A stretch of 64,000 nucleotides of DNA, taken from positions 28,042 to 92,041 of the forward strand of contig CAZOOF010000003.1 in the NCBI GenBank assembly GCA_964581365.1. Direction: 5' to 3'. The notes beneath the pieces are model-generated. The model saw nothing but the letters and a program-made list of their open reading frames with translations. It ran no database searches and had not been told where the DNA came from. The first letter of the stretch is position 1; each line of letters opens with the position of its first letter. Positions 3,277 to 53,604 of this stretch are shown one piece after another. Origin of the DNA: an uncultured Chromatiales bacterium (GTDB lineage: Bacteria > Pseudomonadota > Gammaproteobacteria > SZUA-140). Made by a program: the position numbers and the translations under genes.

Positions 3277-3477
3277 ATGGAGATCTACATCAACGGCGAG
3301 GTGCGGCAGGTCGCGCCGGGGATATCGGTTGCGCAGTTGCTGGCCAGTCTCGACTGCGCGGGGCGTCGCGTGGCGGTGGAGGTCAATCGTGACATCGTTC
3401 CCCGCAGCGGCTATGAGACCCGTGTGGTAAATCCCGGAGACCAGATCGAAATCGTTCACGCCATTGGTGGCGGCTGA
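3277..3477 (+). CDS. thiS: Sulfur carrier protein ThiS
   Basis: 66 aa, [14 protein letters not shown]-terminal IGGG; RBS GGAGA. Confidence 0.95.
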
Positions 3478-4295
3478 TGAGCTCAACGCAAAGCAAGACT
3501 CCGTCCGCGGTCGAGGATGATGCGCTGGTCATTGCCGGCGTTCGCTACCAATCCCGCCTGCTGGTCGGCACGGGCAAATACCGCGATCTGGAAGAGACGC
3601 GGCTCGCAACCGAGGCGAGCGGCGCGCAGATCGTCACTGTTGCCATACGCCGCAGCAATATCGGTCAGCGTGCGGACGAACCCAATCTGCTCGATGTGCT
3701 GCCGCCGGATCGTTACACCATCCTGCCCAACACGGCGATGTGCTATACGGCGGAAGACGCGGTGCGCACCTGCCGGCTGGCGCGCGAGCTGCTGGACGGA
3801 CACGATCTGGTCAAGCTCGAAGTCCTGGCCGATGAAAAGACGCTTTATCCGGATCTGGTGCAGACCTACGAGGCCGCGGAGCAATTGGTTGCCGAGGGCT
3901 TCAAGGTCATGGTCTACACCAATGACGATCCCATTGCGGCTCGCCGGCTGGAAGAAATCGGCTGCGTGGCGGTGATGCCGCTTGCCGCGCCGATCGGATC
4001 CGGTCTCGGCATACGCAATCCGTACAACATCCTGACCATCGTCGAGAACGCCAAGGTGCCGATCCTGGTCGATGCCGGGGTGGGCACCGCATCCGATGCG
4101 GCGATTGCCATGGAGCTCGGTTGTGACGGCGTGCTGATGAATACCGCCATTGCCGGAGCCCGGGATCCGGTACTGATGGCTTCAGCGATGAAGAAGGCGG
4201 TCGAAGCGGGTCGTGAGGCCTATCGTGCCGGTCGCATCCCGCGCAAGCGCTTTGCCAGCGCTTCCTCGCCGGTCGACGGTCTTTTCTTCGCTTGA
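3477..4295 (+). CDS. thiG: Thiazole synthase
   Basis: [45 protein letters not shown]. Confidence 0.97.
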
Positions 4296-4990
4296 TCCCG
4301 GACGTGACCGACGCTACGCAGCGCCGCGTGGTGCGCAGTTTCGTGCGCCGCGAAGGGCGCATGACCGAAGGTCAGCGGCGCGCGCTGGAGCACCATTGGC
4401 AGCGCTACGGTGTGGAGCAGGGGCGCGATGCGCTGGATCTGGATGCCTTGTTCGGGCGCTCGGCGCTCAGGCGACTCGAGATCGGCTTTGGCATGGGCGA
4501 GTCCCTGCTCGCGATGGCCGGTGCCGCTCCTGAAATCGATTTCCTGGGAATCGAGGTCTATCGTCCGGGTGTCGGACACCTGCTGCGTGAGCTCGCGGCC
4601 CGGAATATTGGCAATGTCCGGGTCATCTCCGCCGATGCGGTCGAAGTGCTGCGAGACATGATCCCGCCTGCCGCGCTCGATGCCATCTATATATTCTTCC
4701 CCGATCCCTGGCCCAAGAAGCGCCACCACAAGCGGCGGCTCATGAATCCCTCTTTCGCATCACTGGCGGTCAGCCGGCTGAGTACTGGCGGCCTGCTGCA
4801 TATGGCGACGGACTGGGAGGATTACGCTCATCAGGCGCTGGAAGTGCTGGAGACCGTTCCGGAGCTGCGCAACACCGCCGGGCCGCGCCAGTTTGCGCCA
4901 CGGCCGGAGTGGCGCACTGCCACCCGTTTCGAGCGCCGCGGCGAACGCCTGGGTCACGGCGTCTGGGATCTGATTTTCGAGAAGATCTGA
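4292..4990 (+). CDS. trmB: tRNA (guanine-N7)-methyltransferase
   Basis: [38 protein letters not shown]. Confidence 0.96.
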
Positions 4991-4997
4991 AACCGGA

Positions 4998-5834
4998 TCA
5001 GGGATCGAGAAAGGCGAGGATAGCGTCCAGCCCTGAGTGGTTGATCACCACGTTGGCCTCGGCCTGGGTTGCGGGTTTTGCATGATAGGCGACACCCAGC
5101 CCGGACAGGCGCAGCATGGGCAGATCGTTGGCGCCGTCACCGACCGCGATCGCACACTTCGGTTCGATACCGAGCTCACCACACAGCCGGGTCAGGAAAT
5201 CCGCCTTGGCCTGCGCACCGACGATGTCGCCGCGCACCGTGCCGAGCAACTTGCCATCGGCGATTTCCAGCTCGTTGGCCAAGGTGTAATCCAGGTTCAG
5301 CCGCCGGCCCAGCCGCTCGGTGAAGAACGTGAAGCCGCCGGATACCAGGGCGGTCTTGATGCCGCGCCGATGCAGTCCGGCGATGAGCTCCTCGGCGCCT
5401 TCATTGAGCTGCAGGCGCTCCTCATATACCCGTTCGAGAACTGATGAATCCAGCCCCTTCAGCAGTGCCAGGCGGCGGCGCAGAGAAGTTGGAAAGTCGA
5501 TTTCGCCGCGCATCGCTGCCTCGGTAATCGCGGCGACCTGTTCCCGTACGCCGGCGAACGATCCGAGCTCGTCGGCGCACTCGATGTTGATCAGGGTCGA
5601 GTCCATGTCGGTCAGGAACAGACGGATCGCGCCCGGATCGAATCCCTCCGGCACCGGGTTGATATCGAAGGGAAAGCGCTCGCGCAGCGAGTGCAGCGCC
5701 GCTGGAGCAAGTGACTCATCGGTAATGATGCGCAGATGACCTTGCCTTGTTTCCACGCGACCGCCGGTGATCTCGGCGGCATGCCGCGCGCCGGTGTCGT
5801 CGAGTTTCGGGCCCTGCAGGATGAGCGTTGTCAT
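4998..5834 (-). CDS. serB: Phosphoserine phosphatase
   Basis: HAD motifs DMDSTLINIECADE, VSGGF, VGDGANDLPM. Confidence 0.93.
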   Translation of the reverse strand: MTTLILQGPKLDDTGARHAAEITGGRVETRQGHLRIITDESLAPAALHSLRERFPFDINPVPEGFDPGAIRLFLTDMDSTLINIECADELGSFAGVREQVAAITEAAMRGEIDFPTSLRRRLALLKGLDSSVLERVYEERLQLNEGAEELIAGLHRRGIKTALVSGGFTFFTERLGRRLNLDYTLANELEIADGKLLGTVRGDIVGAQAKADFLTRLCGELGIEPKCAIAVGDGANDLPMLRLSGLGVAYHAKPATQAEANVVINHSGLDAILAFLDP

Positions 5835-5887
5835 TGCCGAGAATCCGGGGTCAAAAATGAACGCCGATCATAGCGTTTTTCCGTGCT

Positions 5888-7099
5888 TCACGCGAGATCG
5901 GTCCGGGCGGTCACGAATAGCATCAGCAGCTCGTTGAGGTATCGCCTCCCTCTGTCGGTCGGCCATACCCGCAGATGATCGCGCTCGATCAGCCCCAGGG
6001 CTTCGGCGCGTGCAAGCTCCTTTTCGACCAGTATCAGAGGAATGCCGGCGTGCTCCTCGAACACACGGCGATGAAAGCCGGCATTGAGGCGCAGCGCGTT
6101 CATCATGAATTCCAGACCGAGATCAGCGGTATCGAGTCGGCGCTGTTCGGCGATGCGCGCCGCGCCTTCTCTGGCCATGTAGTCGCGCGGGCTGCGCCGG
6201 CGCGAGCTGCGTTCGACCGACTGCGCGGAAACGACGGTGATCTTGGCGTGGGCACCGGCGCCGATGCCGAGGTAATCACCGAACAGCCAGTAATTCAGGT
6301 TGTGTTCGCATCGATGTCCGGGTCTGGCCCAGGCCGATACTTCGTACTGTTCATGACCGGCGGCGGCGAACAGCTCCCGGCACTGCTGCTGCATATCCCA
6401 CAGGGCGTCGTCGTCGGGGGTGGCCGGCGGGGCGTGATGGAATGCGGTGTTCGGTTCTATGGTGAGCTGATAGTGCGATACGTGCGGAGCGCCGAGAGCG
6501 AGCGCCTCGCGCAGATCGGCCTGCGCGCCGGCGACCGACTGCCCGGGGAGTCCGTACATCAGATCGATGTTCCAGTTGTCGAAGCCGGCAGCGATGGCGC
6601 CTTCCGCTGCGCTCTTGGCGGCGGCAGCGTCGTGGATGCGGCCGATGCGGAGCAGCATTTCATTGTCCAGGCTCTGCACGCCGATGGAGAGGCGGTTTAT
6701 GCCGGCGGCCTTGAGCTCGGCCAGCTTTGCCTGATCCACCGTGCCCGGATTGGCTTCCAGTGTGATTTCAGCGCCGGGATGCAGAGGAACCCGGGCGCGG
6801 ACCTCGGAAAGCAGGCGGTCCACAGATTCCGGCCGCAGCAGGCTCGGAGTGCCGCCGCCGATGAATACAGTTTCTACCGGGCGGCCCCACACCAGCGGCA
6901 GATCGTGTTCGAGGTCGGCGATGAGCGCGGCGATGTACTCGGATTCAGGAATATCTCCCCGCGGCTCATGCGAGTTGAAGTCGCAGTAGGGGCACTTGCG
7001 CGTACACCAGGGAACGTGGATATAAAGCGCCAGCGGCGGCGCCGCCTGGAAACGGGGGGGCTGCGCCAGGGCCGGAGACAGGCGAACCGTACCGCTCAT
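5888..7099 (-). CDS. hemW: Radical SAM heme chaperone HemW
   Basis: [37 protein letters not shown]. Confidence 0.93.
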
Positions 7100-7718
7100 G
7101 ACGGATGCGGTGAGCCCAGCGCCTGCAGAAGGCTCCTCAGCGCCTGGCCGCGATGGCTCAGCCGGTTCTTGGTGTCCGGCGTGAGTTCTGCAGCCGAGCA
7201 GTCATGGTCGGGAACGAGAAACACCGGATCATAGCCGAAGCCGCCACTGCCCCGCGGCTCGGTCAGAATGCTGCCCTCCCAGGTCCCCTGGCAGATGAGC
7301 GGGGTCGGATCCGCGGCATGGCGCAGGTACACGATGACGCAGCGGAAGCGTGCCGTGCGCTCGCCTTCAGGAACGCCGGCGAGCGCTGTCAGCAGCTTGC
7401 GTACATTGGGACCATTGTCTCCGCCGGGGCCCGCATAGCGGGCGGAATGAATTCCAGGAGCGCCGTTCAGCGCATCGACTTCGAGGCCGGAATCGTCGGC
7501 GAGGGCGGGCAATCCCGTGTGCCGGGAGGCGTTGCGCGCCTTGATGATCGCGTTTTCGATGAAGGTGAGCCCGTTTTCCTCGGCTTCCGGGACGCCGAAG
7601 CCGCTCTGTGAGCAGATGACGATTCCGCTTCCGGCGAGGAGATCGGCAAACTCGCGCAGCTTGCCCTGATTGCCGCTGGCCAGAACGATACGGCGTTCCG
7701 GAGCGGACGGGTGTGTGC

Positions 7719-7722
<4 letters not shown>
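7096..7722 (-). CDS. rdgB: dITP/XTP pyrophosphatase
   Basis: [29 protein letters not shown]. Confidence 0.96.
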
Positions 7723-8447
<725 letters not shown>

Positions 8448-8536
8448 CAGGTAGGTTCCGTTGTATATCTGGGGTCTGATTCTGTGGGAGAATTAGTATA
8501 CCCTATCGAACCCGCATGACCGGAGGATTCTTCCGC

Positions 8537-10116
<1,580 letters not shown>

Positions 10117-10153
10117 TGACCGGATCATCAACATACAGAATTTCCGGAGAGCC

Positions 10154-10480
10154 ATGGCACGCGTCACTGTAGAAGATTGTCTGGAAAAGGTGCCCAACCG
10201 ATTCGACCTCGTGCTGATTGCCGCCAAACGGGCGCGGCAGCTGAGTCTCGGCAAGGAGCCGACGGTGCCTTGGGACAACGACAAGCCGACGGTGGTGGCG
10301 TTGCGCGAGATCGCCATCGGCGCCATCGACAGCTCGGTGCTGGACGAAGTCGGCCCTGAAGAGCAGCGGGATGCCGCCCTCGACGAGCAGGGGTTGCGCG
10401 AACGGCTGCGGCAGGAGCTGCAGCAGGAACTGCAGGATTTTCGTCCGGAGTCGCCTGAATCCGAGCAGGAGCAGGATTAA
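10154..10480 (+). CDS. rpoZ: RNA polymerase omega subunit
   Basis: [35 protein letters not shown]. Confidence 0.97.
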
Positions 10481-10505
10481 GGCCGCCTCGTGACCGGACC
10501 CTGCC

Positions 10506-12737
10506 TTGAAACGCTCCGAGCAGATCTTTCATGTCGAGCAGCCTGAAGTTTCGGATCCCGATCTGCTGCTCGAGGATCTGTGCTCGGAGCTCGAGACCTA
10601 TCTCGATCCCGCACAGATAAGCGAGGTCCGGCGCGCTCACCAGTTCAGCGCCCGGGCCCATGAGGGCCAGCAGCGGCTCTCGGGCGAACCCTACATCAGT
10701 CATCCTCTCGCTGTCGCCCGCATCCTGGCCGGGATGCGCATGAATACCGAATGTATCGTGGCGGCGCTGCTCCATGATGTCATCGAGGACACGCCCACCG
10801 CGCGAGAGCAGATCGCCGAGCAATTCGGCGAGGATGTCGCCCATCTCGTCGATGGCGTCAGCAAGCTGACCCAGATCCAGTTCGAGAGTCGCCGCGAAGC
10901 CCAGGCCGAGAACTTCCGCAAGATGCTTCTGGCGATGGTCCAGGACATCCGCGTCATCATCATCAAGCTGGCTGATCGCTTGCATAACATGCGCACCATC
11001 GGCGCCTGTGCTCCGGAGAAGCGGCGGCGCATTGCCCACGAGACCCTGGAGATCTACGCGCCGATTGCCAACCGGCTGGGCATGAATGTGATACGGACCG
11101 AGCTGCAGGAGCTCGGCTTCGCGGTCTACTACCCCATGCGCTATCGGGTGCTCGCCGAGTCGGTCCGCAAGGCGCGCGGCAATCGCCGCGAGATCGTCAG
11201 CAAGATCAAGGCGGCGCTCGAAGAACGCTTGAGTCATGACGGCTTGCCGTGCCGGGTAATCGGACGTGAGAAGAGCCTGTACAGCATCTACCTGAAGATG
11301 CGGCACAAGCGCCTGAGCTTCGCTGAAGTGTTCGACGTCTATGCCTTTCGCATCATCGTGGACAGCGTCGATGCCTGTTACCGCGCCCTCGGCGCTGTGC
11401 ACAATCTCTACAAACCCGTTCCCGGCAAGTTCAAGGACTACATCGCCATTCCCAAGGCGAACGGCTACCAGTCCTTGCATACCGTGCTGTTCGGGCCATT
11501 CGGGGTGCACATCGAGGTGCAGATGCGCTCGGAAGACATGGAGAAGGTCGCCGAGGCCGGCGTGGCCGCGCATTGGCTGTACAAGCTGGGCGATGGCGGT
11601 ACTGCCAGCGGCACCGAAAAGCGGGTGCGCGAATGGATGAGCGGTCTGCTCGAAATGCAGAAGAGCGCGGGCAACTCGCTGGAGTTCCTGGAGAACGTGA
11701 AGATCGATCTGTTCCCGGACGAGGTCTATGTCTTCACTCCACGTGGCCGTATTCTCGCCCTGCCCCGTGGCGCCACACCGGTCGATTTCGCCTATGCCGT
11801 GCACACCGATCTCGGTAATACCTGCGTCGCTGCCAAGATCGAGCGCCGTCTCGCGCCGCTCTCCACTACGCTGCAGAACGGGCAGACGGTGGAGGTCATT
11901 GCCTCACCCGGTGCCCGGCCCAATCCGGCATGGCTCAACTGGGTCGTCACCGGCAAGGCCCGCGCCAATATTCGCAGCTTCCTGAAGAATCTGAAGCGCG
12001 AGGAGTCGGTGGAACTGGGGCGTCGCCTGTTCGAGCGCTCGCTGCGTAACGTCACCGGCCGCGGACCGGAGGAAATCACGCCCCGGGACATGAATCGGCT
12101 GCTCGCCGATTTCAAGTGCGAGCGAGCGGAGCAGCTCTACGAGGATATCGGCCTCGGCAACCGCCTGGCGCCGCTGGTCGTGCGCCGACTGCTGGAACTG
12201 ACCAGTGCCAGCGGGCGGCGCGGCAATCGCGCGATCAAGCAGGTGTTTTCCCGCTACATGCCGTCCTGGCTCGGAGGGTCGAAAAACGGGCCCGCGCCTC
12301 TGTCCATCAAGGGGACCGAAGGCATGGTCGTCACCTTCGCCAAGTGCTGTTACCCCTTGCCGGGCGATGCGATCCAGGGCTTCGTGACTTCCGGCCGCGG
12401 CATCGTCGTCCATGCCGAGTCGTGCAAGAACGTCAAGGAGTTCCGTAATCAGCCCGAGCGATGGATCGACGTGCAGTGGGAGCGCGACATCGAGGGCGAG
12501 TTCCCGGTGGAGATCCGGGTCGATGCGCTGAATCGCCGGGGCGTGCTCGCGACCATCGCTGCAGTTATCGCCGACATGGGCGTCAACATCAACAACGTGT
12601 CGATCGAAGAACACGATGGCAAGTACAGTTCGATATACTTCGTGATCGCTGTCAACAACCGGGTGCATCTCGCGCGGGTCATGCGTCGCATCCGCACCAT
12701 CGAGCATGTGGTCAAGATAGTCCGCAAAAAAGCCTGA
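10506..12737 (+). CDS. spoT: Bifunctional (p)ppGpp synthetase/hydrolase SpoT
   Basis: HD motif [35 protein letters not shown] and ACT domains. Confidence 0.97.
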
Positions 12738-27923: not shown

Positions 27924-28660
27924 CCGTCCTGGCTATTGCCGGCCGCGAGCTGCGCTCGCTGTTTCTGTCGCCGCTGGCCTGGACGCTGCTGGCGGTGGTG
28001 CAGCTGATCCTGGGTTACATGTTCGTTACCCAGATCGATTTCTTTCTGCAGCTGCAGCCGCGGCTGCCCGGCATACCCGATGCGCCGGGCGTCACTGAGA
28101 TCGTCGTTGCGCCGATGTTCGGCAATGCCGCGCTGGTACTGCTCCTCATTGTGCCGCTACTGACCATGCGCCTGCTGGCGGATGAGTTGCGCAACCGCAC
28201 CCTGCCGCTGCTGTTCTCGGCGCCCGTGTCCATGACTGAGATAGTGCTGGGCAAGTATCTGGGCGTGGCCGGCTTCATCGCCGTCCTGCTGGGGCTGATC
28301 GCGCTGATGCCGCTGTCGCTGCTGTCCGGCGGCGAGCTGGATTTCGGCACCCTGTGCGCCGGGCTGCTGGGGTTGTTTCTGCTGCTGGCCGCATTCGCGG
28401 CGATCGGACTGTTCATGTCCGCATTGACCGGGCAGCCGGCAGTGGCTGCGATCGCCACCTTTGGCGCCCTGCTCATGCTGTGGATCGTCGACTGGAGTGG
28501 CGATGGCGGTGTGCTTGCCTGGCTGTCCATGGTGCGCCACTACGAGCCCCTGCTGCGCGGCGTCTTCAGGAGTTCCGACATCGCTTATTATCTGCTCGTC
28601 ATAGTGACGTTCCTCATTCTCACCATCCGGCGCCTGGACTCCTGGCGCCTCCAGCACTGA
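27920..28660 (+). CDS. ABC-2 permease, GldF-like
   Basis: RELRSLFLSPLAW, PLLTMRL, IVLGKY; about 6 TM segments. Confidence 0.88.
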   Translation: MTVLAIAGRELRSLFLSPLAWTLLAVVQLILGYMFVTQIDFFLQLQPRLPGIPDAPGVTEIVVAPMFGNAALVLLLIVPLLTMRLLADELRNRTLPLLFSAPVSMTEIVLGKYLGVAGFIAVLLGLIALMPLSLLSGGELDFGTLCAGLLGLFLLLAAFAAIGLFMSALTGQPAVAAIATFGALLMLWIVDWSGDGGVLAWLSMVRHYEPLLRGVFRSSDIAYYLLVIVTFLILTIRRLDSWRLQH

Positions 28661-49507: not shown

Positions 49508-49824
49508 TCCGTGCTGTCGTAGTCGCTGCTCTGCTGCTGTTGATGGCAGGATGCTCGGGAGATTCCGCTCCCACATCCTCCGCGCCCGCGGCTTCGTCCG
49601 CAGACAAGTCCTCGCGTAATATAAACCGGACCTATCTGCATTATTGCAGTGGCTGCCACGGTGCGCCGCGTCCGGGTCAACACACAGCGCGGGAATGGCC
49701 CAGCATCGTCGCTCGCATGCAGCAGCGTCGGATCAGCGCCCGGCTCGGTCCGATTCCGCCGCAGGAACTGCGCGAGATTCTCGATTATCTCCAGGAGAAT
49801 TCGGCGGGCGGTCCGCTGCAATGA
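49504..49824 (+). CDS. Small monoheme cytochrome c lipoprotein
   Basis: Lipobox MAGC, Ser-rich linker, CSGCH, WPSIVARM. Confidence 0.85.
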   Translation: MIRAVVVAALLLLMAGCSGDSAPTSSAPAASSADKSSRNINRTYLHYCSGCHGAPRPGQHTAREWPSIVARMQQRRISARLGPIPPQELREILDYLQENSAGGPLQ

Positions 49825-50219
49825 GAGGCGATATGTTCAGAGTTCTGGTTTTCCTCGTCTCCGGCCTGATGCTGCTCACCGCCTGTACGGACGGGAAGGA
49901 GCATGCCCAGCTGGAACCGCAGCACTGGGAAGATATGGTCGTCGCCGTGGAGTTCCGTCCCGTGCCCTTGCGTCCCGGCATGACTGAATTCATGGTGATT
50001 GCGACCCGAGTCGACCGCACCAGGGCGGACGACATGATCGTCGCCCTGCGCAGCGATCCGGGCGCTTCATGGCAGCAGGCGATCCAGGATGGCAAGACGG
50101 GCGTCTATCGCCGGGCAGTACCGCTGCGTGAGGGCGAGCAGATTCTGTATGTCGAGCTCCGGCGCGGTCTGGAGCGGAAGGTGCTCGAGTATCCGGTGCG
50201 GGTAGGCCCAAGTCGCTAG
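49821..50219 (+). CDS. Lipoprotein, possibly FixH/YtkA-like
   Basis: Lipobox LTAC; beta-strand pattern ending G-x-Y...L-x-x-G. Confidence 0.6.
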   Translation: MRGDMFRVLVFLVSGLMLLTACTDGKEHAQLEPQHWEDMVVAVEFRPVPLRPGMTEFMVIATRVDRTRADDMIVALRSDPGASWQQAIQDGKTGVYRRAVPLREGEQILYVELRRGLERKVLEYPVRVGPSR

Positions 50220-50231
50220 ACTTCGGCCGGT

Positions 50232-50756
50232 TCAGGCCTCATTGCCGGAAGGTCGCCGGCGCTTTGCCAGCGTCCTGCTCTGCCGCCAATGGCGAAGGAG
50301 CAGAATCTTTTCTCCCCCCCGCGCTTCGGCGCAGCGCGAACAGGTCAGATGACCGAGCAGGAGCTCGCGAGGCATCTTGCCGGCATCGAGCAGACGACTC
50401 TGGATATCTCGCACTACCGGCCGCAGGCTGCCAAGGTTTCCCTGATGGAGCCAGGCGTAAACCTGATAGGGGCGGGGGAGCCAGCCGACCAGGTGCGAAG
50501 GTGACTGGGTATTCTCCAGCAGGCGAATGAGGGTGCCGCGGAACATTCCGGTACGCACCAAGGCCAGCCCCGGCCATTTCTCCTTCAGTCCGAGGCGATC
50601 GATGTTGGCCTGTTGCCGATGCAACTGCGCGTCATACCCGATCGGCATGTGCAGGAGCATCGGAACCTGTACCCGATGGACACAATGTCCACCGAGATCA
50701 ACGTCCTGCGCATGCCAATCAGGCCAGGTCGACGGGCATCCGCATTCCAGGATCAT
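50232..50756 (-). CDS. Conserved hypothetical protein with CxC and CxxC motifs
   Basis: ECGCP at the N-terminus and TCSRC near the C-terminus; ATGA overlap with the upstream gene. Confidence 0.7.
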   Translation of the reverse strand: MILECGCPSTWPDWHAQDVDLGGHCVHRVQVPMLLHMPIGYDAQLHRQQANIDRLGLKEKWPGLALVRTGMFRGTLIRLLENTQSPSHLVGWLPRPYQVYAWLHQGNLGSLRPVVRDIQSRLLDAGKMPRELLLGHLTCSRCAEARGGEKILLLRHWRQSRTLAKRRRPSGNEA

Positions 50757-51271
50757 GCCTTTCGCGAGTAAACCGTTCGCGCCGTCATGAATACGTTGGC
50801 GAAGAAGATCCAGAAGCCCATACCCATTGCCGTCGAGATGGTGGCGATCAGGGGGCGATAGTAGCGGTGAATCTCGTAGATGGCATCCGTCTCACCCTGC
50901 AGCAGCAGGCGGCCTTCAGTGATGCCGAAAATCATGAGCGTGGAATAAAAACCGGCCACGCCGAGCGCGGTCCACCAGAACGAGTGATCCACCAGCCGCA
51001 TGGACCAGATCGGACGCTTGGAGATGGTGGCAAACAGGTAGTAGGTGACCGCCATGCACAAGAGTACTACCCCGCCCACCACATTGATATGGGCATGGGC
51101 GAGTGGGTCGATCATGTGTCCGGGACCACCGTACGGGCTGCCGATCGAATCCAGCCACGCCCGCACTGGCGGGATTACCTGGATGACGCCATGAACCGTG
51201 CCGATGAAGAAGAATGTGGCCGAACCTACTAGAAATTTCAGTAGCTTACGCAGATCCTGTTCTGCTGACAT
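50753..51271 (-). CDS. Stand-alone 4-TM heme-copper oxidase repeat protein (HCOH-type) no. 2
   Basis: LAHAHINVVGG...YYLFATISKRPIWS...HSFWW. Confidence 0.8.
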   Translation of the reverse strand: MSAEQDLRKLLKFLVGSATFFFIGTVHGVIQVIPPVRAWLDSIGSPYGGPGHMIDPLAHAHINVVGGVVLLCMAVTYYLFATISKRPIWSMRLVDHSFWWTALGVAGFYSTLMIFGITEGRLLLQGETDAIYEIHRYYRPLIATISTAMGMGFWIFFANVFMTARTVYSRKA

Positions 51272-51318
51272 ATCCTGCCCCGATGGCGCTGGCACAAGGC
51301 GCGCGGGTTGTCTGGCTG

Positions 51319-51351
51319 AAAAAAAACCCGGCGTGCGGCCGGGCTTTTATT
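51319..51351 (-). terminator. Intrinsic terminator
   Basis: Minus strand GCCCGGC-loop-GCCGGG followed by T8. Confidence 0.8.
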
Positions 51352-51366
51352 GATACGGCGCCGCAA

Positions 51367-51474
51367 TTACTTCTTGCGGTTGATGCTCTCCAAGGCGCGC
51401 TCGCTGATGTAACCGCCCAAGAACACGCTGAGACCAAAGAAGATAATGATCGGCACCAGAATTTCCGGCCACAT
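51367..51474 (-). CDS. 35-aa single-TM microprotein MWPEILVPIIIFFGLSVFLGGYISERALESINRKK
   Basis: RBS GGGGAGGG 8 nt upstream, own terminator; not in ORF track. Confidence 0.75.
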   Translation of the reverse strand: MWPEILVPIIIFFGLSVFLGGYISERALESINRKK

Positions 51475-51603: not shown

Positions 51604-53604
51604 TCAGGCCCGCTTGCGTGCCGCGCTATCTGCGGACGGCCGCGGCGCGCAGGCCAGCAGACCGCTGTGGAATTTCTCCAGGGCCGCCTTGCGCTCGACC
51701 AGAGCTGCCTGGCCGGTCTGGAGCTCGCGCAGCTGAGTTTCGAGGTTGTCCTTGGATTCCCGGATGCGGCTGAGCGTCTTCATGTGGCGCTCCGTGCTGT
51801 TGCGCATTTCCTGAATCTGTCCAACCAGAGGGTTGACCAGTTCCTTGAGCCAGGCGTCAGCCTCCCTGTTGGCCTCGACAAAGATGTTGCGGGCATGAGC
51901 CACCAGCGAGATGAAGAACTTCTTAACCACGAAGCTCTGCTCGGTCATGGTGGTGCTCGGGCTGTTGCGGAACTCCTCTGCTCTCAGATACAGGAGGTCC
52001 AGTTCCTCGGTGTACTTTCGTGTCGGGAACATGCGCGGTTCGGCGATGCGCAGACCGTAATCGTCATGAAAGCGCTTGTAGATCGACTGCACCAGCTTGA
52101 AGGTCTCTTCGGACTGGCGCACGGTGATCTGCATGGCGTCGCGCATGCTGTCGAAGAAGACCGAAATGCCGTTCTTCATGCCCGCGGTGGTCCAACTGCC
52201 GGCCATGTCCTCGCGTGTCCGTTCGATGATCTTGTCGATGGCGCCCAAATCCATGGTGGCAAACATGCTCTTGGCCTGCAGCGCCAGCTTCTTGCGACTG
52301 AGCTGGAAGGCCTTCACGCTCTCATAGTAGAGGTTCTTCTTCTCCTTGGCCTTGATCAGCAGCTGCTGAACGATGTCCTCGTTGTTCCCTTTGACCGAGT
52401 CGATCTCATTGATCTGGGCGTTCAGGTTCTCGATCTGGCTGTCGAGCGGAACCCGGATTTCTTCCACTGAGCGCTCGAACAGGCCCACGAGGTTATCCCA
52501 GATGACCTGCTGGCGATGCGGCAGGATATCGTCCCCGAGCAGGGATTCGAGCGCGGGCAGGTTGCTGCGCTGCAGCAGTTCCTGGTTGCCGCGGATCTTG
52601 GCGAGCAAGGCCTTCTGGGCGGAAATCGGGAACACGTTGGCGGCATCGATCTCCAGCAGGCGGGCGCTGCTCTGGCACTGCTCACGGATGGTGGCTTCCA
52701 CCTCTTCCGGGCGTTTCATCTCGTCCCAGAGCGTGTCGATCTTGTTGAGCACCGCCACCAGACCCTTCTGCTTTTTGGTGCGGAAGGCGGTGATGTAGTT
52801 CTGCCACATATCCAGATCGCTGCGCGTCACGCCGGTGTCCGCGGAGAGAATGAACAGCACCGCCTGGGCGCTCGGAAGCATGTTGATCGTCAGCTCCGGC
52901 TCGGAACCAAGCGCATTCAGACCCGGCGTGTCCAGAATGACCAGTCCCTGGGTCAGCAAAGGGTGGGGGAAGCTGATCATGGCATGGCGCCAGACCGGGA
53001 TTTCTACGGTGTCCGGCTTGGCCGCATCGCTGCCCGCGTTGGCAATCTCTTCCACATAGAGTCCGAGCTGCTCGGCCTCCTGGACCGTCACCCGCTTCGT
53101 GCGTACCACCTCCTGGCAGGTTTCCACGATCTGGTCGGGCGAGGACATGTCCAGCGGGAGATGGGTCCAGTAACTGGATTCCGCCTTCAGCTCGGACAGG
53201 CTGAGTTCGCTCAGCCGCGTCTCGATCGGCAGTAGCCGGAGATAGGCTTCGCCTGCTTCGCGGTCGTAGAACAGCTCGGTCGGACACATCGTGGTGCGAC
53301 CGGCGTCGGATGGCAACAGGCGTCGACCCAGATCGGCGAAGAAAATGGCGTTGATCAGCTCGGTTTTGCCGCGCGAGAACTCCGCGACAAAGGCGATGTT
53401 GATCTGGTCGGTCTGCAACGCATTGAGCGCGTCGTAGATCCGCAGTTCGATTTCAGGACTGCCGAGCTGATTGCTGTTCAGCCATTCCTGAAAGTCCCGC
53501 ATCATTCCGGTCAGTTCCGCCTTCCAGGTGGAGAAGGCCTGCATCTGATCTCGGAAGCGATCCTGTTCCGGGGCGTGTTTCAGCCCGATTGCTTTGCTGG
53601 ACAT
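51604..53604 (-). CDS. Bacterial dynamin-like GTPase
   Basis: AEFSRGKT (G1 variant), TTMCPTE, DTPG, NKID; helical C-terminal region. Confidence 0.87.
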   Translation of the reverse strand: MSSKAIGLKHAPEQDRFRDQMQAFSTWKAELTGMMRDFQEWLNSNQLGSPEIELRIYDALNALQTDQINIAFVAEFSRGKTELINAIFFADLGRRLLPSDAGRTTMCPTELFYDREAGEAYLRLLPIETRLSELSLSELKAESSYWTHLPLDMSSPDQIVETCQEVVRTKRVTVQEAEQLGLYVEEIANAGSDAAKPDTVEIPVWRHAMISFPHPLLTQGLVILDTPGLNALGSEPELTINMLPSAQAVLFILSADTGVTRSDLDMWQNYITAFRTKKQKGLVAVLNKIDTLWDEMKRPEEVEATIREQCQSSARLLEIDAANVFPISAQKALLAKIRGNQELLQRSNLPALESLLGDDILPHRQQVIWDNLVGLFERSVEEIRVPLDSQIENLNAQINEIDSVKGNNEDIVQQLLIKAKEKKNLYYESVKAFQLSRKKLALQAKSMFATMDLGAIDKIIERTREDMAGSWTTAGMKNGISVFFDSMRDAMQITVRQSEETFKLVQSIYKRFHDDYGLRIAEPRMFPTRKYTEELDLLYLRAEEFRNSPSTTMTEQSFVVKKFFISLVAHARNIFVEANREADAWLKELVNPLVGQIQEMRNSTERHMKTLSRIRESKDNLETQLRELQTGQAALVERKAALEKFHSGLLACAPRPSADSAARKRA

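Follow-up and report, generated by a model that had tools for sequence, protein, structure and literature searches.

In a 64,000-nucleotide stretch of contig CAZOOF010000003.1 (forward-strand positions 28,042 to 92,041; hereafter the window) from an uncultured Chromatiales bacterium, a four-transmembrane (4-TM) protein related to subunit I of the heme-copper oxidases (HCO), here called unit2, is encoded directly upstream of a soluble cysteine-motif protein, here called CysP. The two proteins are likely to form a complex dedicated to one respiratory oxidase, an extended cbb3 system found in uncultured Gammaproteobacteria and in Zetaproteobacteria, which comprises CcoN/CcoO-like proteins, a CcoG-like polyferredoxin, FGE-like and membrane SpeE-like proteins, a second single-unit oxidase homologue (unit1), and several cytochromes c. 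More tentatively, we favour a two-protein membrane module of that system whose role is probably the supply or maintenance of heme b; the mechanism by which heme would be supplied is a more doubtful proposal. A first-pass annotation of the same DNA had described a 4-TM unit with an AHAH motif and additional histidine motifs, its stop overlapping the start of a protein with ECGCP and TCSRC motifs, and had read the pair as metal-handling proteins or unit2 as the partner of unit1 in a hetero-oligomer. The sequence features it described are all present; the functional readings fared less evenly, as set out below.

The association between the pair and the oxidase is sharp at the level of whole genomes. 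Across an even draw of 400 Gammaproteobacteria genomes, CysP was present in 27, while the cluster-type CcoG-like gene, unit1 orthologues, and unit2 orthologues were each present in 28. All 27 genomes with CysP were among the same 28 genomes that carry the other three genes, and CysP was found in none of the 372 other sampled genomes (Fisher exact test for CysP versus the CcoG-like gene, p = 4e-41). In the 28th genome, which has no CysP, the unit2 gene is truncated by a contig end. No unit2 orthologue was found apart from the oxidase in this sample, independent occurrence being something that the first-pass annotation had named as counting against its reading, and unit1 and unit2 occurred together in all 28 genomes, with which its suggested hetero-oligomer of the two units is compatible. 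Within the window's own order, CysP was detected in 31 of 36 genomes. The genome from which the window derives encodes one full oxidase subunit I, two single units (unit1 and unit2), and one CysP.

Pairing of the two genes is equally regular. A scan of one genome per species yielded 80 loci, whose hosts are Zetaproteobacteria (including Mariprofundus ferrooxydans PV-1, with its orthologues at L049 7501–8498) and uncultured Gammaproteobacteria. In 79 of the loci the gene immediately before CysP is unit2, the 80th being cut by a contig end. Among 77 loci, the gap between the genes is no more than 62 nt in all but one, and stop and start overlap in 52 (classes -4, -1, -8, and -11 nt). With these counts, the earlier description of a real, conserved pair that is coupled by its overlap geometry and linked to the oxidase is borne out. 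In 64 of the 80 loci the pair also directly adjoins the tail of the oxidase cluster in convergent orientation (tail order: lipoprotein, FixP_N-like protein, CcoG-like polyferredoxin, membrane SpeE-like protein, FGE-like protein), with CysP beside the lipoprotein homologue. Where the pair sits among housekeeping genes, all 10 genomes checked still carry a cluster-type CcoG-like gene elsewhere.

Profile and structural comparisons show that unit2 corresponds to helices 9–12 of CcoN, as an independent copy of the four-helix repeat of which CcoN contains three. Its score against the Pfam COX1 profile is above the gathering score (36.6 vs 34.8 bits, E 3.2e-9, profile positions 307–405 of 436), whereas the match to the TIGR00780 ccoN profile (positions 304–411) is far below the cut-off (40.7 vs 583.15 bits): unit2 is not itself a CcoN, having four TM helices and, of the histidine ligands, just the helix-10 pair. 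Among solved CcoN chains, a profile built from 24 unit2 orthologues matched residues 337–415 of 3mk7_A best and the first and second thirds more weakly, so that the known threefold repeat becomes visible. The membrane half of the predicted model superposes on 9g6b_A, 3mk7_A, and 8smr_E over ~180 columns (root-mean-square deviation ~3.9 Å, 20–23% identity), and the four TM segments, placed N-in/C-in by hydropathy and the positive-inside rule, agree with CcoN helices 9–12. The COX1 score and the HxH motif in 79 of 79 orthologues amount to far more than chance for unit2, as do four cysteines in 81 of 81 orthologues for CysP. Foldseek also returned, at rank 35, a weak match between the part of the model covering unit2 and the human MAPEG protein leukotriene C4 synthase; a resemblance between HCO units and MAPEG trimers was reportedly pointed out by Pei et al. 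in 2014.

Profile alignment sets H52, D55, H59, and H61 of unit2, all on the periplasmic side, against H337, D340, H345, and H347 of Pseudomonas stutzeri CcoN, respectively; in the 3mk7 structure H345 is the heme b3 ligand and H347 the heme b ligand. H59 and H61, the AHAH pair, are invariant in the 79 unit2 orthologues. The remaining histidines are conserved at 96% for H27 in TVHG (Gln in 3 of 79), 96% for H52 in PGHM (alternative Arg), 96% for H96 in DHSF (alternatives Leu and Tyr), and 95% for H135 in EIHR (alternatives Asp and Gln), so lack of conservation is no objection to them. Their description as extra, metal-handling residues is nevertheless not upheld, as H52, H96, and H135 match or neighbour histidines of CcoN: H52 is common to unit1, CcoN, and the sister units described below, H135 is close to the histidine of the AEHP loop in the window's CcoN, and H96 is one position off the HFW-motif histidine of that CcoN and of unit1. 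At the position of H27, CcoN and the sister units have Gln and unit1 has Met. Judged from the alignment, then, H27 alone among the supposed extra histidines is specific to units coupled with CysP; H96 is likewise lineage-restricted, but as a shifted form of an inherited histidine. The periplasmic loop of unit2 (RAWLDSIGSPYGGPGHMIDPLAHAH) is nearly invariant from Gammaproteobacteria to Zetaproteobacteria yet poorly modelled (AlphaFold predicted local distance difference test, pLDDT, <50), suggesting that it needs a cofactor or a partner. No other protein of the locus is as conserved as unit2, which has 58% identity to Mariprofundus versus 47–57% for its neighbours.

CysP contains neither a hydrophobic segment nor a signal peptide and is therefore placed in the cytoplasm. 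Its AlphaFold 2 model (24 homologues; pLDDT 90, predicted template-modelling score, pTM, 0.84) has the secondary structure E-H-E-E/E-H-E-E, that is, the two beta-alpha-beta-beta (SHS2) repeats that define the GyrI-like/SOUL fold. Foldseek matched it with probability 1.0 to many GyrI-like chains at template-modelling (TM) scores of up to 0.63, including the EcmrR C-terminal domain (6wl5_A, E 2e-4, TM score 0.62), CTR107, SAV2435, BmrR-C, CtaZ, and BrlR-C, and also the GyrI-like hydrolase lin2189 (5x5m, 5x5r). A CysP profile gave no significant match to PDB sequences.

The cysteines of CysP (C5 and C7 in ECGCP, C139 and C142 in TCSRC) were present in all 81 orthologues and both motifs fall within confidently modelled regions; on the simplest reading, the four would make up a structural knuckle, holding Zn or Fe, by which the N-terminus is fastened to the last beta-hairpin. 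The window's CysP itself scored below the gathering cut-off of the family PF20603 (19.2 vs 27 bits, E 1.2e-3, residues 7–57 only). The family was matched by 24 of 24 CysP orthologues (best E 3.1e-10), and by these profile scores CysP is a divergent member. A CysP profile search of 1.84 billion representatives returned only 107 clusters, of which ~4 were full-length, oxidase-linked 50%-identity clusters and ~85 were clusters of 155–165-aa relatives that carry the same four cysteines (CxC...CPxC). Because this pattern is the hallmark of the whole of PF20603, in unrelated contexts, it looks more like a structural site than one dedicated to metal trafficking, and the first-pass view of the pair as metal-handling finds no support here in that form. 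To the family pattern the oxidase-linked branch adds a set of invariant or nearly invariant residues (W14, H27, H36, M37, P38, Q48, E59, W61, P62, and Q119). Pfam and NCBIfam scans of CysP found PF20603 only, with no match to HMA, Cox11, Sco, or PCuAC, and we know of no experiment behind the family name, 'Bact_hydrolase'. Elsewhere in PF20603, some distant members (among P0199, P0248, P0255, P0260, and P0283) have long low-complexity tails, which are K/E-rich and C-terminal (~140 aa) in one case and P/Q/A-rich and N-terminal (30–155 aa) in others. Two distant members come directly after a Der-type GTPase.

Exceptions to the usual arrangement help to separate what belongs to unit2 from what belongs to CysP. 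Two genomes (G090 and G197) encode a unit 40% identical to unit2, which forms its sister clade in a tree with long branches. In these sister systems the genes for the unit and for a cytochrome c overlap, and the unit gene is immediately followed by genes for a small TM protein (72 aa) and a related CcoN (55–59% identical); the operons (Table 1) further encode a short CcoO-like protein (173 aa), a FixP_N-like protein, two membrane cytochromes c, and a thioredoxin-like lipoprotein. Neither system has genes for CysP, unit1, or the CcoG-like, FGE-like, and SpeE-like proteins. The unit2 lineage therefore belongs with the oxidase itself, and CysP came with the enlarged system. R92 and H96, in a cytoplasmic loop of unit2, are conserved in CysP-coupled units and replaced by T/L and V, respectively, in the CysP-less sister units, which makes them candidate docking residues for CysP on the strength of this pattern. 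In a further genome (G093) the pair is split between two loci (L102 and L103): unit2 stands alone between antiporter-like and LysR-type genes, and CysP, lengthened by 20 aa at its N-terminus, is the last gene of the CcoG-like operon, in the same orientation. This move into the CcoG-like operon implies that CysP is tied to the system and is no chance neighbour. A phylogeny of the single-unit proteins, proposed as a check in the first-pass annotation, placed unit1 with the third repeat of CcoN and far from unit2, again with long branches, implying that the two units are ancient, very deep paralogues.

Taken as a heme b module, the pair could work as follows. Unit2 and CysP would bind 1:1, with CysP on the cytoplasmic loops of unit2 around R92 and H96, and unit2 would oligomerise, either as a homotrimer or together with unit1, holding a b-type heme between the HxH helices near the periplasmic side. 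In CysP, stapled by its putative Zn or Fe knuckle, the pocket would bind a planar ligand, most plausibly heme, and the task of the pair would be to deliver heme b to the unit and the oxidase, to insert it there, or to maintain it, in a cytoplasm-to-membrane cofactor hand-off resembling in its logic that of Surf1 for heme a. A more specific version, in which CysP is a SOUL-like heme carrier that docks on a trimeric unit2 'loading bay' from which heme passes laterally to CcoN or unit1, seems to us unlikely in that exact form. Transmembrane electron transfer from a rubredoxin-like CysP to a periplasmic heme was considered and set aside as the leading account, being unlikely: all candidate ligands are near the periplasmic side and there is no histidine pair on the cytoplasmic side. 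H96 stands alone there, and its shifted counterpart in CcoN, the HFW-motif histidine, is not known to be a heme ligand.

Several observations weigh against the heme b module. The conserved histidines of unit2 are near the periplasmic side and CysP is cytoplasmic, so that the hand-off must cross much of the bilayer. The high conservation of unit2 is more what one would expect of a subunit that carries a cofactor permanently than of a chaperone acting transiently, and the sister single-unit systems, by their gene content, appear to work without CysP and with one unit only. The SOUL/p22HBP heme binders match CysP more weakly (TM scores 0.45–0.5) than do drug-binding GyrI-like domains. In the four neighbourhoods of PF20603 relatives that were examined, contexts were unrelated and no partner recurred, implying that the generic function of the family is not oxidase-specific. 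A natural fusion of unit2 and CysP was also sought: a library-wide profile search found no protein of ~350 aa, and the long open frames in five genomes that had looked like candidates were overlapping frames. Lastly, for one zetaproteobacterial locus (L050) in which the genes are in frame, the read-through chain was folded to stand in for the complex, from an alignment that contained both paired and unpaired rows; the halves were well folded, the linker was disordered, and the pTM of 0.58, not used as support, is what such a model would be expected to give for two well-folded domains without a confident interface.

Nearly as likely as the heme b supply module is that unit2 is a permanent auxiliary redox subunit, a small b-type cytochrome acting as a homotrimer or as a heterotrimer with unit1, and that CysP is its structural or regulatory cap; by itself this, too, is a possibility of limited weight. 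It would account for a protein conserved like a catalytic subunit with a nearly invariant periplasmic loop, whose low model confidence suggests a cofactor or partner absent from the model, and it is in keeping with the joint occurrence of unit1 and unit2 in 28 of 28 genomes and with the sister operons, in which the overlap of the unit gene with a cytochrome c gene ahead of CcoN resembles the CcoO-to-CcoN order. However, it leaves the ligand-binding fold of CysP without a role, and in the window the transcription of unit2 is separate from that of the oxidase operon and of every cytochrome gene. Less likely than either of these is a copper route, which we regard as improbable, in which CysP would take Cu(I) through its CxC/CxxC motifs, perhaps from the CcoG-like reductase, and the His/Met-rich periplasmic loop of unit2 would assist CuB assembly. 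CxC and CxxC motifs are found in Cu(I) proteins, CcoG is a cupric reductase in cbb3 biogenesis, and CysP strictly co-occurs with the CcoG-like protein, even sharing its operon in G093. Nonetheless, the four-cysteine pattern is generic to PF20603 and found in contexts unrelated to copper, the unit2 histidines correspond to heme rather than CuB ligands of CcoN, and the Pfam and NCBIfam scans revealed no similarity to HMA, Cox11, or PCuAC. Moreover, an ordinary Cu P1B-ATPase and a Sco/SenC homologue are encoded elsewhere in the window's own genome, so a new copper route is not needed.

The GyrI-like fold of CysP also invites readings in which heme plays a lesser part. GyrI-like domains are typically the effector-binding modules of regulators (BmrR, EcmrR, Rob, BrlR), and CysP might modulate unit2 or the oxidase on binding a small planar molecule (quinone-like, heme-derived, or xenobiotic) or through cysteines that respond to redox state; alternatively, unit2 might sense periplasmic O2 or nitric oxide (NO) through heme and signal to CysP. 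Relatives that consist of three such units (NnrS) were reportedly connected with NO stress by Pei et al. in 2014. Such a sensor or regulator is very unlikely in our view: neither protein has a DNA-binding or signalling domain, and no regulator gene is conserved next to the pair in the 80-locus neighbourhoods. Hardly credible, finally, is that CysP is an enzyme like the GyrI-like cyclopropane hydrolase lin2189, with unit2 serving merely as its membrane anchor. The Pfam name 'bacterial hydrolase' and the likeness in fold to lin2189 (5x5m, 5x5r) are in its favour, but the former is the PF20603 name as the database gives it, the latter is weaker than the likeness to binding-only GyrI-like proteins, and no substrate logic connects such an enzyme to the oxidase cluster.

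Coordinates of the pair and its surroundings are given in Table 1. As the first-pass annotation had noted, the pair converges on the plus-strand oxidase operon: the stops (50232 and 50219) are 12 nt apart, and with no hairpin between the ends of the lipoprotein and CysP genes (50219–50232) the two transcripts probably overlap. Tight convergent spacing of ~15–50 nt recurs in many related loci. On the upstream side, a hairpin with a T-run, of different sequence, is kept in L001, L002, L003, L007, L008, L027, and L065, and, given its position, unit2-CysP would need either a promoter in the remaining ~50 nt or read-through of the terminator. By tblastn, at least 16 of the 80 loci have the microprotein ORF in the same relative place, and in Gammaproteobacteria it may belong to the locus as a third component. 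Several gammaproteobacterial loci (L001, L003, L007, L008, and L017) share the gene order proC-YggT-dynamin-like-unit2-CysP.

Table 1. Features at and around the unit2-CysP pair (window positions) and, in the last two rows, the operons of the sister systems (positions on their own contigs).
Feature	Position	Strand	Remarks
unit2 gene	50753-51271	-	172 aa, 4-TM, from ATG; GTG at 51295 likewise open
CysP gene	50232-50756	-	174-aa soluble protein
ATGA overlap of unit2 stop (TGA) and CysP start (ATG)	50753-50756	-	translational-coupling geometry, read directly
GAAAGG Shine-Dalgarno-like run	50758-50763	-	1-6 nt upstream of CysP ATG
g49644	49644-50219	+	lipoprotein, last gene of the convergent oxidase operon
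GC-rich hairpin plus T-run	51319-51345	-	intrinsic-terminator-like, between microprotein gene and unit2; stem also detected on the plus strand
Microprotein open reading frame (ORF), MWPEILVPIIIFFGLSVFLGGYISERALESINRKK	51367-51474	-	35 aa, single TM segment; ~100 nt upstream of unit2
Dynamin-like GTPase gene	51604-53604	-	666 aa; upstream of microprotein and pair; followed by YggT and proC
Simpler oxidase operon, L100 (G090:C157)	3400-6700
Simpler oxidase operon, L101 (G197:C4)	5700-11600

What appears to be new here is an obligate cytoplasmic partner and a sharp genomic association for a known type of membrane unit. We found nothing in print on PF20603 or on the pairing of a unit with a PF20603 protein, the content of Pei et al. 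2014 lying outside this search, and, that paper aside, no treatment of stand-alone units in the literature searched; in papers on Zetaproteobacteria the locus figures simply as ccoNO(P). To our knowledge, no stand-alone oxidase unit has a tested function, nor has a heme b insertion factor been described for cbb3. If the pair does supply or hold heme, it would fill a gap in cbb3 biogenesis and show what one third of an oxidase does in a living cell; should the loading-bay version be true, cbb3 oxidases would have their first dedicated chaperone system for heme b, and single-unit homologues would gain a function. The pair offers an experimental handle through its soluble and readily expressible partner CysP, its strict link to one oxidase system, and its cultured carriers (Mariprofundus). 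It also marks PF20603, an unstudied 'hydrolase' family, as a probable metal-stapled ligand-binding protein.

Among known systems, the closest to unit2 are the 4-TM stand-alone HCO homologues (HCOH) that Pei, Li, Kinch and Grishin are said to have described by computation in 2014. These units were reportedly most like helices 9–12 of subunit I of HCO and nitric oxide reductase (NOR), with two conserved histidines, and were proposed to rebuild the 12-helix fold as homo- or heterotrimers. Unit2 is likewise an independent 4-TM gene homologous to HCO helices 9–12, with its HxH pair on the second helix. Unlike those HCOH, it is coupled to a PF20603 four-cysteine protein, and it is strictly inherited together with an extended cbb3 system, not with denitrification genes. 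With CcoN (PF00115, TIGR00780; 3mk7, 9g6b, 8smr) unit2 shares the fold and sequence of helices 9–12 and the S-x-(R)-L motif of the cytoplasmic loop, but it is one third the size, lacks the CuB ligands, the helix-2 histidine, and the cross-linked tyrosine, and has an 8–10 residue insertion (SIGSPYGGPG) in the periplasmic loop. CysP resembles other PF20603 proteins in length class, N-terminal CxCP, and C-terminal TCPxC, and differs from them in forming a tight separate branch with its extra invariant residues, the only branch seen beside a membrane unit. Its model shares the duplicated beta-alpha-beta-beta fold and the predicted central ligand groove of GyrI-like, SOUL, and HEBP proteins (6wl5, 5kax, 5kat, 5x5m, 4b0y, 2gov), from which it differs in its 8–17% identity (no detectable sequence similarity), its four-cysteine knuckle, and its lack of a DNA-binding domain. 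Surf1/Shy1 is the heme a insertion factor of aa3 oxidases, and CcoG, CcoH, CcoI, and CcoS are cbb3 assembly factors. The Pfam and NCBIfam scans gave no homology of the pair to any of these proteins, and the likeness to them is an analogy of role only, that of an oxidase-dedicated accessory encoded with its enzyme.

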